The notes under the pieces are model-generated. The model searched no databases. It saw only the letters and a list, made by a program, of their open reading frames with translations, and was not told the DNA's origin. A stretch of 64,000 bases of DNA, taken from the IMG/VR virus record IMGVR_UViG_3300032285_003957, positions 96,001 through 160,000 of that record, one strand, 5' to 3'. Positions 20,486-39,512 of the stretch are shown here, one piece after another (within the stretch, counting starts at the first letter, position 1; every line of letters begins with the position of its first letter). Source of the stretch: a virus (lineage: Duplodnaviria; Caudoviricetes). A program made the position numbers and the translations under genes.

Positions 20486-21254
20486 TATCGTCGTCTAATT
20501 TATCTTCCAAATAATCAATCACATCTTCAATTTCTAAACCGTGACTTTTTAAATTGTTTTTTAATGATGTTAGTTGTCTTTTAAGAATTTTGTCAATTTC
20601 TTTTTTTTCGTTCTCAACAGACTTTTTAACAATGTCACCGTCTTTATGCTTCTTTTTTGATAAAACGCTTTCAATATATTCTTCCATGAATTTTTTAGGT
20701 GTTTCAATCAATCTTACCTTATCGTCACCCGCTGGTTCATCAGGAATATAACCCATTGCTTCTAATCTTTCTATAGATTCTTCATGAGATAAACCTAAGT
20801 CTTTGGTAAAATGGTTGTAAGCTTGTTTAAAATTTTCATCTTTTTCCATGGTATTTTCGTAACCCAAAGACTTACTCATGTCAGCTTCAGCCCAATATCT
20901 TAAAGATGTGTGTGTTCCATGAACACCATGAATACCCATTGAACCTGCACCTGTTTTAACAACTTTATCGGTTGTTGAATTTGATGTAATCCCTTTAGTA
21001 TTAAAATCACGAGGTTTTTTACCACGAGCTATGTTACCGTTTTTATCAACAATTTCATCAACTTCTTTCTCTACACCATCCTCATCAACTTTATTAGGTA
21101 TTTTTTTGTAATCAGTTTTGTCTGAGAATTCCTTAGCCCACTTAGCCCATTTCTTACCTTTTTTTCCTCCTTTACCCGCTTGAGCATAAAAGAATCTTTG
21201 TTGTGCTTTGGACTTAAACGCTTCCTCAATTATGTTTTCAATAAATTTATCCAT
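20478..21254 (-). CDS. Putative internal head protein
   Basis: IIEE followed by basic module AFKSKAQQRFFYA...KWAKEFSDKT; TATTTAT upstream. Confidence 0.55.
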   Translation of the reverse strand: MDKFIENIIEEAFKSKAQQRFFYAQAGKGGKKGKKWAKWAKEFSDKTDYKKIPNKVDEDGVEKEVDEIVDKNGNIARGKKPRDFNTKGITSNSTTDKVVKTGAGSMGIHGVHGTHTSLRYWAEADMSKSLGYENTMEKDENFKQAYNHFTKDLGLSHEESIERLEAMGYIPDEPAGDDKVRLIETPKKFMEEYIESVLSKKKHKDGDIVKKSVENEKKEIDKILKRQLTSLKNNLKSHGLEIEDVIDYLEDKLDDDNE

Positions 21255-21687: not shown

Positions 21688-23631
21688 ATGACAAATAAGA
21701 GAATTGACCAATTACAGGAATTTACGGGAGACACAACGGGGGCGTATTTTATAATGAATAATAGTGGTGAAACCACAACTTATAAAGTAAGAAGAGAAAC
21801 TATATTGGGTCAATCTCAAACATCAGGAACAAGTGGAACATCTGGTTCTTCAGGTTTAAATGGAACATCGGGTTCTTCGGGAACATCGGGTTCAAATGGT
21901 TTATATGGCTCAAATGGTAGTTCAGGAACCAGCGGCACATCGGGTTCAAATGGTTCATCAGGTAGTTCAGGGTCATCGGGCTCAAGCGGAAGCTCAGGAA
22001 TTAATGGTAACTCAGGTTCATCAGGAACATCAGGGTCGAATGGTAGTTCAGGAAGTAGCGGTTCATCTGGTGTTTCAGGTTCAAATGGTAGTTCAGGTTC
22101 ATCAGGAACTTCAGGAATAAATGGTAATAACGGTAGTTCTGGTTCAAGCGGAACATCTGGTAACGGAACTTCAGGAACATCGGGTAGCTCAGGTTCATCT
22201 GGTGTAAATGGAACTAATGGTTCGTCAGGAACATCAGGGTCGAATGGTAGTTCAGGTTCTAGTGGAACATCGGGAATAGGTTCGTCAGGAACCGCAGGAT
22301 CAAGTGGAACATCAGGTTCTAATGGTAGTTCCGGAACGTCAGGAAGTAATGGTTCATCAGGAACTAGTGGCACATCAGGTAGTAACGGTTCATCCGGAAC
22401 TTCGGGAACAAGTGGTTCATCCGGTACATCAGGTTTATTAACATTAACAGGGACAACCACAAATGGTGTAATAACATATAATGGTTCAGGAACAAATGCC
22501 ACCGTTCAGTCAGGAATGACATATAGTGGAACAACTTTATCATTAACAGGTTCATTAATTATAAGCGGTAGTTCAAATACCGTAAATAATAGGTTAACAA
22601 CATTAGAAAATTCTATAATAACAGGTAGCGCAAATTATGTTCAAGTATTGGGAAATCAAAGAACGGGTATAAATGCAGGTGGCGTTTCTATTATTAGTGG
22701 AAGTATCACTACAACAGGTAATCCTGTTCAAATAATGGTTACAGGTGACGCAAACCCAATAGGAGGAAGTGCTTGGGCTAGATTACAAATTTATAGAGAT
22801 GGTAATGCAATTGGAAACATTATTCAGGCGGAAAATGGTTCAAACTTAAATGTTCCGTATTGTTTAAATATAATAGACACACCGTCATCCGGAACTTATA
22901 CATATAGTATGAGAACCGTATTAATGGGTGGGACGATGGATTTTGGTGAGGCGACAGGTCCTCTTTTAACTGCAATAGAATTAAAAACAAATACTAATTT
23001 ACCAAGCACAAATAACACATTTACAGGAACAAATACATTTAGTGGTTCAACAACAATTAAAGGTGGATTAAATATAAATAATGCTGTTGGTAGTGGTGGT
23101 TCGTTGGAAGGTGGGGAAATAGATTTACAATATGCACCATCTACCACATTAACAGGTAGTTTTGCGGTATTTGATGTTTATGGTGATAAAATAAGAATTT
23201 TTGAGGGTGGTGGAAACTCAAGAGGTGTGAGTATAGATTTAAGTAAATCTCCCGTAGGTGTTGGTGGTGAATTGTTATGGAAAACAAGTGGGTTTGTAAA
23301 TGCTGGAACATTTTTAACATTAGATAATCTAAAAGTAACCGTAACAACCAGTGGTAATAGAGGATTAAGTATAGCTGCGGTATCCACAAATTTTACCGCT
23401 AACATATCGGGTTGGTATGGATATACTGGTGGTGGAAGTGGAAATTCCGCATATAGTGTATCATATACAACAACCGCATCTAATTCTCCGTTTGGTTGGA
23501 GTTTTACAACAGAAGGTGATACAGCTCAATACAACATATTAGATAAAACAAATAGTAGAATGTATAGAGTTACGATGATGATAGGGTTTGGTTTTAACAA
23601 TAACTTTATTTCAATAGAAAGATTATATTAA
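21688..23631 (+). CDS. Collagen-like (Gly-Ser/Thr-Ser/Asn) fibre or decoration protein
   Basis: About 200 aa of Gly-X-Y triplets followed by beta-rich fibre domains. Confidence 0.75.
   Translation: MTNKRIDQLQEFTGDTTGAYFIMNNSGETTTYKVRRETILGQSQTSGTSGTSGSSGLNGTSGSSGTSGSNGLYGSNGSSGTSGTSGSNGSSGSSGSSGSSGSSGINGNSGSSGTSGSNGSSGSSGSSGVSGSNGSSGSSGTSGINGNNGSSGSSGTSGNGTSGTSGSSGSSGVNGTNGSSGTSGSNGSSGSSGTSGIGSSGTAGSSGTSGSNGSSGTSGSNGSSGTSGTSGSNGSSGTSGTSGSSGTSGLLTLTGTTTNGVITYNGSGTNATVQSGMTYSGTTLSLTGSLIISGSSNTVNNRLTTLENSIITGSANYVQVLGNQRTGINAGGVSIISGSITTTGNPVQIMVTGDANPIGGSAWARLQIYRDGNAIGNIIQAENGSNLNVPYCLNIIDTPSSGTYTYSMRTVLMGGTMDFGEATGPLLTAIELKTNTNLPSTNNTFTGTNTFSGSTTIKGGLNINNAVGSGGSLEGGEIDLQYAPSTTLTGSFAVFDVYGDKIRIFEGGGNSRGVSIDLSKSPVGVGGELLWKTSGFVNAGTFLTLDNLKVTVTTSGNRGLSIAAVSTNFTANISGWYGYTGGGSGNSAYSVSYTTTASNSPFGWSFTTEGDTAQYNILDKTNSRMYRVTMMIGFGFNNNFISIERLY
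21826..22434 (+). repeat. Gly-X-Y coding repeat (~67 triplets, GSS/GTS/GSN, two register breaks)
   Basis: Direct translation; no Pro in the repeat. Confidence 0.9.
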
Positions 23632-35826: not shown

Positions 35827-38685
35827 ATGGCAAATTCAAACAAAGTATTCGTTTCTCCGGGTGTTTACACATCAGAGAAGGATTTAACATTCGTAGCTCA
35901 GAGCGTAGGTGTAACTACTTTAGGATTGGTTGGTGAGACCCTGAAAGGTCCTGCATTTGAACCAATTTTAATCGGAAGTTATGACGAATTCAAAACATAT
36001 TTCGGAACAACATCTCCTGAAAAGGATGGTTCGGGAGCACCAAAGTATGAACTACCTTATGTAGCTAAGGCTTATTTACAAGAATCAAACCAATTATTCG
36101 TAACAAGAATATTGGGTAAAACTGGTTACCTACCATATAAAACATTCGGTATTCAAACAATCGGTGGAATGGTTGTTAATTTAGCATCATTCACACATAG
36201 TGCTTCTACTATGGACCCTGATGCGCATACAGGTATGACAAATAGTAGTTTCTACTCAGCATTAAACGCTCACACATCAGTTGACGGTGTGAACTCTGTT
36301 GCAGCATATATTGAAAAGAACTATAGCGGAAATACACAACATCCTTCAACAGGTGCATGGTTCCAAATCGGTGCAATTCCTGATACAGACGTTCCTGGTG
36401 GAAGTAAATTATTATCTCCATTCAGTGCATATAACAATAAGAATTGGTATAATGTATGGAATAATGGAACTGACGCAGTTTATTCTTATTTATTTGTATG
36501 GAATGTAGGCGGATGGTTTGATGTGACAAGATATGTATATGCTGCTGAAGTTAATGCCGATTATGATGGTATTACTGTTGCAGCTTTAAGATCAAGAGGT
36601 CATTACGATACTCACCAAAATTTAGTGTTAGAAGTAACTGGTGACACAAGCTTCCAATTAGCTGATGTTAGTGGTATTCAAACAAACCCATTGGCGGAGT
36701 TTTCAATAAATGTAACAGGACATACAGGTGGTGTTAAATCATTCACATGTTCATTAGATACAACTTCTACAAAATACATCACTAAAGTTTTAGGAACAGG
36801 TGTATTTGATAAAGACTACAGCGGTCATCCGTTATATGTTCATGAAGTTTATCCTAACTTATTATTAAACGCTTATAATCAAGGGTTTATCAAAGGTTTA
36901 AGTTTAGTTGAAGTTTACAATCTTGAAGGTGATGATTTCAAACAACCTTGGGATACTACAATGTCAAATATGGTTGTATCTGAAGTTAGAGGTAATAAAG
37001 TTGACGAATTATTCTCAGTTCAAACAATTGCGGATGGTGAAGCAGCTAACTTCCAATTAAAAATACAAATTCAAAACATTAACATTGAAACAGGTGAATT
37101 TGATATGGTTCTTCGTGATTTCTACGATACTGATGATAATCAAGTAGTATTAGAGAAATTTACAAGATGTTCAATGAATCCTGATTTACCGGGTTACATC
37201 GCAAGAAAAGTCGGAACATCAGATGGTGAATATCCATTAAATTCAAAATACATTACATTAGTAATGGCAGACGGTGCACCAACAGATGCATTCCCTGCAG
37301 GTTTCAAAGGTTTCGTAAACAATAGCGCGTTTGGTAGTGACAATACTTTAGGTAATGTTTTATATAAAACAAACTATTTTGATGCAGGTGAAACAGTATA
37401 CTACAATGCTGATGGTAGTGTTAAAATGTCTGATGGTGACAAAGTAAGAAGAGTAACTTTAGGTTTATCTACACAATCTGGATTCAAATATGATGAAGAT
37501 TTATTCAAATATAAAGGATACGGCGCAAGTAGTTCAACTTATGGTTTCCACCTTTCAACTAACGCATCTTCAATTGTTGATACACAGAGTAAACAAGTTT
37601 ATCAAACAACAGGTTATGATTTAGAAGGTCAAACAGGTGACGCTAATAACAAATTAACAAACATTAATTACCGTAAATTTACTTTCGCAGTATGTGGTGG
37701 TTTTGATGGTTGGGATATCTACAGAAGCACAAGAACAACTGGAGATGGTTACATCTACGGTAAACACACTTACATTTCAGGTAACACTAACAATGGCGGT
37801 GTATTCAATGCTGATTATGGTAACTCAGATTATTATGCTTACTTAGCAGGTATTCAAACATATTCTAATCCTGAAGCAATTGACATTAACTTATTTGCAA
37901 CTCCTGGTATCAATTTCATTGACCATAGTTCATTAGTTAGTCAAGCAATTGATATGGTTGAAAATGATAGAGCTGACTCATTATACATTATTGGTGCTCC
38001 AGGTCCTAACTCACAACAAGAAGTTGATGGTGTAGTTGGTGATTTAGAATTATCAAATATTGATTCTAACTACTCAGCAACATATTGGCCTTGGATTCAA
38101 GTAAGAGACACTGACAATGCAACTCAAATCTATCTTCCACCAACAGGTGAAGTAGTTAAGAACATTGCTTTAACAGATAATGTAGCTTATCCTTGGTTTG
38201 CACCTGCAGGTTATTCAAGAGGTTTGGTTAATGCAATCAAAGCTTACAAGAAATTAACACTTGATGATAGAGATACATTATACAAAAACAGAATTAACCC
38301 AATTGCAACATTCTCAGATACCGGTACCATTATTTGGGGTAACAAAACGTTACAAGTTAGAGAATCTGCTTTGGACAGAATCAACGTAAGAAGATTATTG
38401 TTAAGAGCAAGAAAGTTAATCTCTGCTGTTGCTGTAAGATTATTGTTTGAACAAAACGATGACCAAGTAAGACAAGAATTCTTAAGATTGGTAAACCCTA
38501 TCTTGGAATCAATTAAGAAAGAAAGAGGTTTGTATGAATTCAAAGTAACTGTGTCTAACGACCCAGAAGATATCGATGCAAATACATTGAGAGGTAAAAT
38601 TTACGTTAAGCCTACTCGTTCTCTTGAATTTATTGATTTGGAATTTGTAATTACTCCAACAGGAGCTTCATTTGAAAATATCTAA
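35827..38685 (+). CDS. Tail sheath protein (gp18-like)
   Basis: FVSPGVYTSEKD, YSATYWPW, PWFAPAGYSRG, LYKNRINPI, WGNKT, RINVRRL, KPTRSLEFI. Confidence 0.95.
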   Translation: MANSNKVFVSPGVYTSEKDLTFVAQSVGVTTLGLVGETLKGPAFEPILIGSYDEFKTYFGTTSPEKDGSGAPKYELPYVAKAYLQESNQLFVTRILGKTGYLPYKTFGIQTIGGMVVNLASFTHSASTMDPDAHTGMTNSSFYSALNAHTSVDGVNSVAAYIEKNYSGNTQHPSTGAWFQIGAIPDTDVPGGSKLLSPFSAYNNKNWYNVWNNGTDAVYSYLFVWNVGGWFDVTRYVYAAEVNADYDGITVAALRSRGHYDTHQNLVLEVTGDTSFQLADVSGIQTNPLAEFSINVTGHTGGVKSFTCSLDTTSTKYITKVLGTGVFDKDYSGHPLYVHEVYPNLLLNAYNQGFIKGLSLVEVYNLEGDDFKQPWDTTMSNMVVSEVRGNKVDELFSVQTIADGEAANFQLKIQIQNINIETGEFDMVLRDFYDTDDNQVVLEKFTRCSMNPDLPGYIARKVGTSDGEYPLNSKYITLVMADGAPTDAFPAGFKGFVNNSAFGSDNTLGNVLYKTNYFDAGETVYYNADGSVKMSDGDKVRRVTLGLSTQSGFKYDEDLFKYKGYGASSSTYGFHLSTNASSIVDTQSKQVYQTTGYDLEGQTGDANNKLTNINYRKFTFAVCGGFDGWDIYRSTRTTGDGYIYGKHTYISGNTNNGGVFNADYGNSDYYAYLAGIQTYSNPEAIDINLFATPGINFIDHSSLVSQAIDMVENDRADSLYIIGAPGPNSQQEVDGVVGDLELSNIDSNYSATYWPWIQVRDTDNATQIYLPPTGEVVKNIALTDNVAYPWFAPAGYSRGLVNAIKAYKKLTLDDRDTLYKNRINPIATFSDTGTIIWGNKTLQVRESALDRINVRRLLLRARKLISAVAVRLLFEQNDDQVRQEFLRLVNPILESIKKERGLYEFKVTVSNDPEDIDANTLRGKIYVKPTRSLEFIDLEFVITPTGASFENI

Positions 38686-38708
38686 TCTAAAAGGAGATAT
38701 AAAAATAG

Positions 38709-38742
38709 AAAAGGGGATGCTAAAAACATCTCCTTTTTTTAT
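38709..38742 (+). terminator. Rho-independent terminator after sheath
   Basis: GGGGATG/CATCTCC stem plus T7. Confidence 0.75.
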
Positions 38743-38746
38743 TGAA

Positions 38747-38762
38747 TGTTCCACATGGAACC
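38747..38762. promoter_or_regulatory. parS-like site
   Basis: TGTTCCACATGGAACC vs parS palindrome TGTTCCACGTGGAACA (14/16 match), intergenic. Confidence 0.5.
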
Positions 38763-38789
38763 TGTATCCAAATATTTGATTTACCTTAC

Positions 38790-38895
38790 CCAGTATACTG
38801 GAACTAGATACTAGAACTTATATTCTGGTACCTTATATATTATTTATATTTAATTAAAGATTTTATATTTATTTATTCTGGAACTAGTATACTGG
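38790..38895. repeat. Palindrome/direct repeats flanking a near-pure AT tract (origin-like)
   Basis: CCAGTATACTGG palindrome, CTGGAACTAG x2, AGTATACTGG x2, 45-nt AT tract with one G. Confidence 0.55.
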
Positions 38896-39023
38896 TGTAA
38901 AAAACTACGAAAAAAAATTGACAAAAACAAGAAATACCAAGATTTTCTTTAAAAAAAAATTATTTCCAATACCGATATATTTATAAGAAAGCAAAATAAC
39001 ACATTAAATTTAACTAACACAAT

Positions 39024-39512
39024 ATGGCAGATTTATTAATGAAGATGCCGGTTCCATTTGAACCGAAACGTAAAAATCGATTTATCCTAAGATTTCCTTC
39101 TTCCTTGGGTATCAATGAATGGTATATCGCTTCTACGGCAAGACCAACAGCTAAAATCAAATCAGTAGAAATACCATTTTTGAATACGAAGTCTTACGTA
39201 GCAGGACAATTTGAATGGGAAGAAATCAAAGTAACATTTAGAGACCCAATCGGTCCTTCAGCATCTCAAGCTTTAATGGAATGGTTCCGTTTACATGCAG
39301 AATCAGTAACAGGTAGAATGGGTTATGCAGCTGGATACAAAAAAGATGTGGAATTAGAAATGTTAGACCCAACAGGAGTTGTTGTTGAGAAATGGATTTT
39401 ACAAGGATGTTTCTTAACTAACTTAAACTTCGGTGATTTAGATTACTCAAGAGATGATTTAGCGACAATCGATTGTAGTTTGAGAATGGATAGATGTATT
39501 CAAGTTTATTAA
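39024..39512 (+). CDS. Tail tube protein (gp19-like)
   Basis: FEPKRKNRF, WEEIKVTF, ALMEW, YKKD...LDPTG..VEKWILQGCF. Confidence 0.9.
   Translation: MADLLMKMPVPFEPKRKNRFILRFPSSLGINEWYIASTARPTAKIKSVEIPFLNTKSYVAGQFEWEEIKVTFRDPIGPSASQALMEWFRLHAESVTGRMGYAAGYKKDVELEMLDPTGVVVEKWILQGCFLTNLNFGDLDYSRDDLATIDCSLRMDRCIQVY

Follow-up and report, generated by a model that had tools for sequence, protein, structure and literature searches.

An orphan parS-like palindrome of host chromosomal type in the sheath-tube gap of an uncultured T4-like jumbo phage, a candidate binding site for host ParB

The window analysed here is a stretch of 64,000 nt that comprises bases 96001-160000 of a single IMG/VR viral contig of 234,116 bp (G000), 33.5% G+C. 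The contig lacks a terminal repeat, and CheckV puts its completeness at about 70%. Within the window, a tail sheath gene encoding 952 residues (35827-38685, plus strand; phrog_23 tail sheath, E 1.4e-65) is followed by a tail tube gene encoding 162 residues (39024-39512, plus strand; phrog_4542 tail tube, E 8e-27). The 338 nt between them (38686-39023) are, as the sequence-only reading had noticed, the largest stretch of the window that is not covered by a listed ORF of at least 100 residues, and every motif listed by that reading was found where it had been placed. The first element in the gap is the predicted intrinsic terminator of the sheath gene (38707-38741, plus strand), a hairpin of -14.3 kcal/mol, as computed for the RNA of 38705-38745, that is followed by a run of seven T. 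The only match of the gap in Rfam is a sub-threshold one to this terminator. The next element is an unstranded, orphan, host-type parS-like palindrome (38747-38762), and behind it lies a copy of the early-promoter motif (38770-38789, plus strand; Bacteroidota-type, for host sigma-A), which resembles the motif at contig 10-19 kb. Two clusters of short words of the type WWCTRG follow on the plus strand. The left cluster (38790-38832) includes a perfect 12-bp palindrome (38790-38801), and the right cluster (38874-38897) is reached across an A/T tract of 45 nt that contains a single G (38833-38877). Copies of a 10-nt direct repeat start at 38798 and 38878, and a second 10-nt word is found at 38792 and 38886. 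The remainder of the gap contains a conserved, A-rich upstream box with a partly dyad-symmetric TTGA..TCAA core (38897-38931, plus strand) and the late tube promoter (38974-38987, plus strand), whose core TATTTATA at 38978-38985 lies 38 nt before the ATG.

Judged by its sequence, the phage looks like a virulent, T4-like jumbo myovirus with genes devoid of Shine-Dalgarno sequences and with early promoters of the Bacteroidota type. A tyrosine integrase was not found in the contig. In the whole contig a Shine-Dalgarno core within -20 to -4 precedes only 10 of the 271 called genes, and the early genes at contig 10-19 kb have TTTG-N20-TAnnTTTG promoters upstream. The few Shine-Dalgarno cores, the early promoter type, and the variant of the parS sequence suggest a Bacteroidota-like host. 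The late genes use TATTTATA directly upstream of their starts, and 63 of the 99 matches of the contig to TATTTAT[AT] are located within 80 nt upstream of a gene start on the same strand. This agrees with T4-type late promoters, which consist of a short A/T octamer at about -10 before late, structural genes and have no -35 element. The sheath gene carries the motif at the same distance from its ATG as the tube gene. The cultured phages that are nearest by tail tube are all distant, with at most 43% tube identity, and include a Microcystis phage, Flavobacterium phage immuto, and Rhodothermus phage RM378.

A search with the tube protein identified at least 597 related stretches in IMG/VR. We kept 80 related loci, 72 of which contain both the end of the sheath gene and the tube gene, so that the window and these relatives together form a set of 73 loci, and 70 loci could be placed in a tree. 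The sheath-tube spacer is long in all 72 relatives, measuring 245-431 nt in 71 and 941 nt in one into which a gene has been inserted. Among the 56 unique spacers, 45 have a sheath terminator with a hairpin of -6 kcal/mol or below and a T-run, and the stem sequences are unrelated between lineages. The copy of the early-promoter motif between palindrome and repeats is found only in the window and in L001, and a different AT-rich sequence takes its place in the other relatives. L001 is 98% identical to the window, and its copy fits the early consensus better.

The sequence-only reading had counted 14 of 16 matches between the palindrome and parS, which is correct with respect to the perfect palindrome TGTTCCACGTGGAACA, the mismatches being positions 9 and 16. 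Chromosomal parS sites are 16-bp palindromes of two TGTTnCAC half-sites, and this is the pattern present here. No other match to TGTTCCACGTGGAACA with up to two mismatches is present in the window (0.01 expected from shuffles), and the 14-bp core is matched only once in the whole 234-kb contig. The choice of the consensus matters, because the site scores 13/16 against the Bacillus-style consensus and 14/16 against TGTTCCACGTGGAACA. With the Bacillus-style consensus alone the match appeared chance-like and better matches were found inside genes, a view that was dropped after the relatives and host genomes had been compared.

Exactly one palindrome with up to two mismatches to the core is present in 59 of the 73 loci, and the parS match is thus conserved in the relatives. 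It occupies one of two slots, either 42-85 nt after the sheath stop codon or 43-85 nt after the tube stop codon, and never both; in L048 it is found further along because of the inserted gene. Among the loci placed in the tree, 25 of 70 have the palindrome after the tube gene and 13 have no site with up to two mismatches in either slot (14 of all 73 examined). In these lineages the site is either dispensable or located elsewhere. Five small contigs of site-less lineages, which are 2-18% complete, contain no site elsewhere. In the tree of sheath plus tube, loci of the same state (site after the sheath gene, after the tube gene, or not seen) group together, and about six changes are needed. This pattern could be explained by two ancestral arrangements that recombine as well as by repeated relocation. 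The spacers of L024, L029, L030, L052, and L077, which have no palindrome, contain extra words with GGACC. Second matches to the palindrome in two related contigs (G001 and G002; loci L081 and L084) were rejected because they lie inside ORFs and are compatible with chance at one to two mismatches.

By our own arithmetic only about 0.002 matches of this kind are expected by chance per locus in about 740 nt, so that the selection of the sites was not circular. In 39 unique contexts, no change is seen at positions 2, 4, 6, 13, and 14 and hardly any at positions 5, 7, and 15. Variation is found in the outer bases, at the two central positions, and in the flanks. Conservation is sharply limited to positions 2-15. 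The relatives include perfect 14-bp cores, and their variants exchange C and T at position 5 of the half-site, as do known parS sites. The site of L070 matches the spo0J-type site of B. subtilis at 15 of 16 positions, the site of L031 differs from the general consensus by a single central transition, and the central G-to-A change of the window site (G9A) is seen again in roughly half the contexts of the phage sites. The changes in the two arms are not compensatory, which argues for a protein-binding site and not for an RNA hairpin. The comparison shows the palindrome to be a selected cis-element whose sequence is that of a genuine parS site.

The parS reading of the palindrome, which the sequence-only reading had proposed, also agrees with bacterial genomes, both with sites known to be bound by ParB and with clusters in Bacteroidota. 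More than 120 stretches of bacterial genomes, spread over many phyla, contain the exact 16-mer, and often two to five copies share a segment of a few kb. The exact core is present in 50 of 301 evenly sampled Bacteroidota genomes, compared to one for the control. Among the matches listed, the copies of multi-copy Bacteroidota genomes lie within about 2 kb of each other, except for one genome with pairs on two contigs. In Chitinophaga, a Chitinophagales MAG, Algibacter, Flavobacterium soli, and Daejeonella all matches to the degenerate core fall into one cluster of at most 4 kb; these five genomes have no match to the reversed control and one ParB gene each. For example, the 390 nt that separate mnmG/gidA from ybeY in Chitinophaga contain four copies. 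In P. aeruginosa the perfect 16-mer corresponds to parS2/3 and the A16C form to parS1/4, and ParB of this species binds all ten sites in vitro, those with two mismatches at lower affinity (PMC4368675). The perfect sites of the phage relatives are therefore identical to parS2/3, and the half-site TGTTCCAC is used by P. aeruginosa and other bacteria, whereas the window site equals parS1/4 with one additional central G-to-A transition (PMC4368675). The chromosomal sites differ in that they are clustered near oriC on a replicon that encodes parAB, while the phage site is a single orphan.

The site is not restricted to this phage family. In IMG/VR the exact 16-mer was found on at least 120 viral contigs (loci L205-L324) compared to three for the reversed control palindrome, and these contigs differ greatly in G+C. 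Among the at least 120 viral loci listed, only 2/120 belong to the phage family of the window and only 2/120 have a ParB-like gene nearby. Judging from these sequences, host-type parS sites on viral contigs that do not encode ParB seem to be common. The excess of at least 40-fold suggests a general, little-described phage strategy that might bear on carrier states, pseudolysogeny, and host takeover. Scans for parS sites in phages should be made with the half-site variant that the host clade uses and not with the Bacillus consensus alone. In L260, L291, and L324 two different parS variants are found side by side.

Alternatively, a palindrome with this sequence and location could serve a dimeric regulator encoded by the phage as its operator, or act as a roadblock to transcription linked to the terminator, and share the parS sequence by coincidence. 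It is always found in the tail module beside the tube gene, usually 0-40 nt from the T-run of the terminator, extra half-sites are present in L036, L050, L055, and L057, and the palindrome could fold into a 5-bp hairpin of -5.5 kcal/mol. However, a 7-nt half-site would match parS at all specified positions by chance in only about 1 in 4,000 cases, the tolerated variants are those known from parS, and the absence of compensatory arm changes speaks against a hairpin in the RNA. In addition, L048 has kept the site although the inserted gene parts it from the terminator, and the exact site is enriched at least 40-fold on unrelated viral contigs. We regard the operator or roadblock as unlikely. With the palindrome read as a parS site, its position mostly directly downstream of the terminator may shield it from transcribing polymerases. 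This adjacency is not obligatory, as the reverse-strand gene between terminator and palindrome in L048 demonstrates.

If the palindrome is a parS site, the question is which ParB would bind it. The sequence-only reading had seen no parAB genes in the window, and this extends to the whole contig: the models for ParB_N, HTH_ParB, and the ParA-type ATPase did not match anywhere in the 234 kb, those for ParB_N and HTH_ParB did not match in four related contigs of 91-251 kb, and tblastn with five Bacteroidota ParB proteins found no match in the contig or in 84 loci of the family. All these phage contigs are partial (27-75% complete according to CheckV), so that ParB has to be called not found, and a divergent or distantly encoded phage ParB is possible. 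No DNA similarity was found in the early region by which the partial contigs would jointly cover the whole genome. A self-contained parABS system, with cognate parA and parB on the same replicon as the site, was accordingly not found in these partial contigs. Since the five partial phage contigs yielded neither a ParB nor a ParA gene, the protein binding the palindrome is likely to be the ParB of the host. The window site has two mismatches, one of which is central (G9A), and in P. aeruginosa such mismatches lower the affinity (PMC4368675).

In the proposed mechanism, dimers of host ParB would recognise the two half-sites, bind CTP, close as clamps, and spread over the neighbouring phage DNA. 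The loaded ParB complex would engage ParA and may load SMC, and the phage genome would be handled like the origin region of the host, with ParA-driven positioning or segregation, as has been suggested for phi29 and Spo0J. A more speculative and quite doubtful idea is that a host ParB-CTP clamp loaded beside the tube gene slides along the DNA and thereby regulates the late transcription of the tail genes, in analogy to the gp45 clamp of T4 or KorB/BisD.

Phage genomes that are partitioned by a ParB-parS complex are known. The phage-plasmids P1 and N15 are temperate, encode their own ParA and ParB, and have dedicated parS sites that are not of the chromosomal type. The phage of the window resembles them in the putative partition by ParB and parS, but differs in that neither ParA, nor ParB, nor a tyrosine integrase was detected. 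A closer likeness is found in phi29, whose DNA contains five parS sites and for which the host protein Spo0J has been implicated in the segregation of the phage genome into the prespore, as summarised in PMC2731898 (citing Meijer et al. 2005). Like phi29 and Nf, as they are described there, the phage analysed here appears to be a virulent phage without ParB that carries a chromosomal-type parS and would use the segregation protein of its host (PMC2731898). What we find corresponds to the phi29 type at the sequence level: a host-type parS that is conserved on a phage for which neither ParB nor an integrase has been detected. The podovirus phi29 has a genome of 19 kb with five sites that serve to trap it in the spore (PMC2731898), in contrast to the single site of a jumbo myovirus of more than 234 kb with the signals of a non-sporulating, Bacteroidota-like host. 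The pay-off must therefore be different from that of phi29, because the host signals point to a bacterium that does not sporulate. Candidates are the inheritance of a carrier state, the positioning of replicating genomes, and the titration of ParB. The principle of a ParB-less phage with a host parS is thus already known from phi29 and Nf, and what the sequences described here add is a very different phage and host. In the literature that was searched, no parS of a ParB-less phage beyond that of phi29 was identified. Outside of phages, the integrative element SGI1 stabilises itself through the parABS of its helper IncC plasmid, according to PMC10954446. It is similar in being a mobile element that exploits the partition system of another replicon, and it differs in that an integrative element and a plasmid system are involved instead of a phage and a chromosomal system (PMC10954446). 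If host ParB does load at the palindrome, a widespread family of uncultured jumbo phages (at least 597 IMG/VR stretches) would use the segregation machinery of the host while encoding none itself. Such a use by a ParB-less phage has so far been demonstrated only for phi29, where it is linked to sporulation.

The sequence-only reading had combined the palindrome with the repeats and the AT tract into a replication origin, with the AT tract as the unwinding element and parS as the centromere. Taken in full, this model would make the repeats initiator-binding iterons and the whole a plasmid-like maintenance module. The layout behind this proposal is real. Two clusters of repeats do bracket a 45-nt AT tract, and outside the genes the contig has no other word cluster of this kind. 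The two clusters are complementary to each other (MFE -31 kcal/mol, z -6.3), and the distance between parS and the repeats is at most about 1 kb in each relative that has the site. In addition, origins of the T4 type can sit outside replication modules. The parS part of the proposal is well supported by the conservation of the site and its identity with chromosomal sites, but the origin part is not. A DnaA box is absent from the gap, and none of the eight perfect boxes of the contig lies beyond its first 35 kb. The GC skew, which had been suggested as a check, follows the orientation of the genes, is positive on both sides, and has no inflection at the gap; the cumulative skew reaches its minimum at position 20,555 of the contig, next to a spacer between divergent genes that contains two DnaA boxes. 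The AT tract could be an unwinding element but is not exceptional, since an equal AT content is reached at 24 places of the contig at a scale of 60 nt. No initiator gene is adjacent, the neighbours being the sheath and tube genes. Furthermore, parS can be separated from the repeats, which stay upstream of the tube gene in the 25 loci that have parS behind it.

The repeats themselves also differ from those of known origins. Iteron-type origins such as lambda ori and T4 oriE have repeats beside an AT-rich tract. Compared to these, the repeats in the gap are much shorter, irregular, and hypervariable, and they are accompanied neither by an adjacent initiator gene nor by a skew that would support an origin. 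Direct repeats of about 17-22 bp in regular phase, as expected for iterons, were not found in the window, where words of 6-10 nt are spaced by 6-53 nt. Across the relatives the words vary strongly in sequence and number, and some relatives have almost none. Phage origins do not need to show a skew, and nothing that we examined favours an origin at the gap, which is thus not supported; we consider the origin with its centromere quite improbable. It is also quite doubtful that parS, the repeat/AT region, and the early DnaA boxes together turn the phage into a host-driven mini-chromosome that is replicated by host DnaA, segregated by host ParAB, and maintained in a carrier state in non-sporulating bacteria. 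The perfect DnaA boxes are more numerous in the contig than expected (eight compared to about three), and those of the early region near the skew minimum might be a better candidate for an origin than the gap. This lead is weak because the boxes in four relatives show a weak excess but no tight pairs. Outside the window, DnaA boxes are located at contig positions 18,896-18,924 and 19,649, and two of them are 20 nt apart in a divergent intergenic region of 293 nt.

The short words in the relatives form several layouts, namely two WWCTRG clusters around an AT tract, tandem arrays of 7-8 nt with up to 15-19 words, or almost no words at all, and copy numbers differ even between close relatives. 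They remain upstream of the tube gene irrespective of whether parS is adjacent or located beyond the tube gene. The left cluster is conserved as a class in those relatives that have parS beside the repeats (S-type). The S-type lineages mostly use words containing CTGGAAC, a sequence that matches a parS half-site at 6 of 7 positions, and the lineages with parS after the tube gene (T-type) use words with TTAG and TA. The difference between the two vocabularies could be due to phylogeny or could be functional.

The repeat region might be a structured element, with a long hairpin over the AT tract that forms in the RNA of a sheath-tube read-through transcript or in single-stranded DNA of a replication intermediate. 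Folds of single sequences indeed pair the left and right arms in many relatives, with z-scores of -3 to -6.8. However, these scores are inflated, given that the arms consist of palindromic words and the shuffles preserved the mononucleotide content only. A consensus structure was not obtained with RNAalifold (-0.34 kcal/mol), covariation gives no support because the columns that pair hardly vary, and Rfam has no match beyond the sub-threshold one on the terminator. A structured element is therefore very improbable.

In contrast to the words, the box of about 35 nt can be aligned in nearly all of the 56 unique spacers, where it always follows the short words, and it is unique in the contig. The late-promoter motif is found about 45 nt beyond the box and is invariant across the relatives. 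In L024, L029, L030, L052, and L077 the module of box and promoter is duplicated in tandem, which ties the box to the promoter because both have been duplicated as one unit. The simplest view is that repeats, box, and promoter together serve the highly expressed tube gene as a region of upstream control or of architecture, a role that we assign to repeats and box from their position. Taken as a whole, the gap is probably a composite of the sheath terminator, an orphan parS of chromosomal type with host ParB as its presumed binder, a variable AT-rich region of short words, the conserved box, and the late tube promoter.

Two further observations concern other genes. The gene inserted between the sheath terminator and parS in L048 (1532-2185, minus strand), which gives rise to the spacer of 941 nt, encodes 217 residues with a GDS(L)-type motif, and its start codon overlaps parS. 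The vocabulary of the short words is also present in the repeats of collagen-like Gly-Thr-Ser fibre genes, which was judged coincidental since these genes are of low complexity. The fibre-like genes, at 21688-23631 of the window and at contig positions 217,351-231,594, are very large and have Gly-Ser/Thr-Ser triplet repeats, and their codons yield dozens of parS half-sites (one 9-mer occurs 36 times) as well as the short words of the gap.
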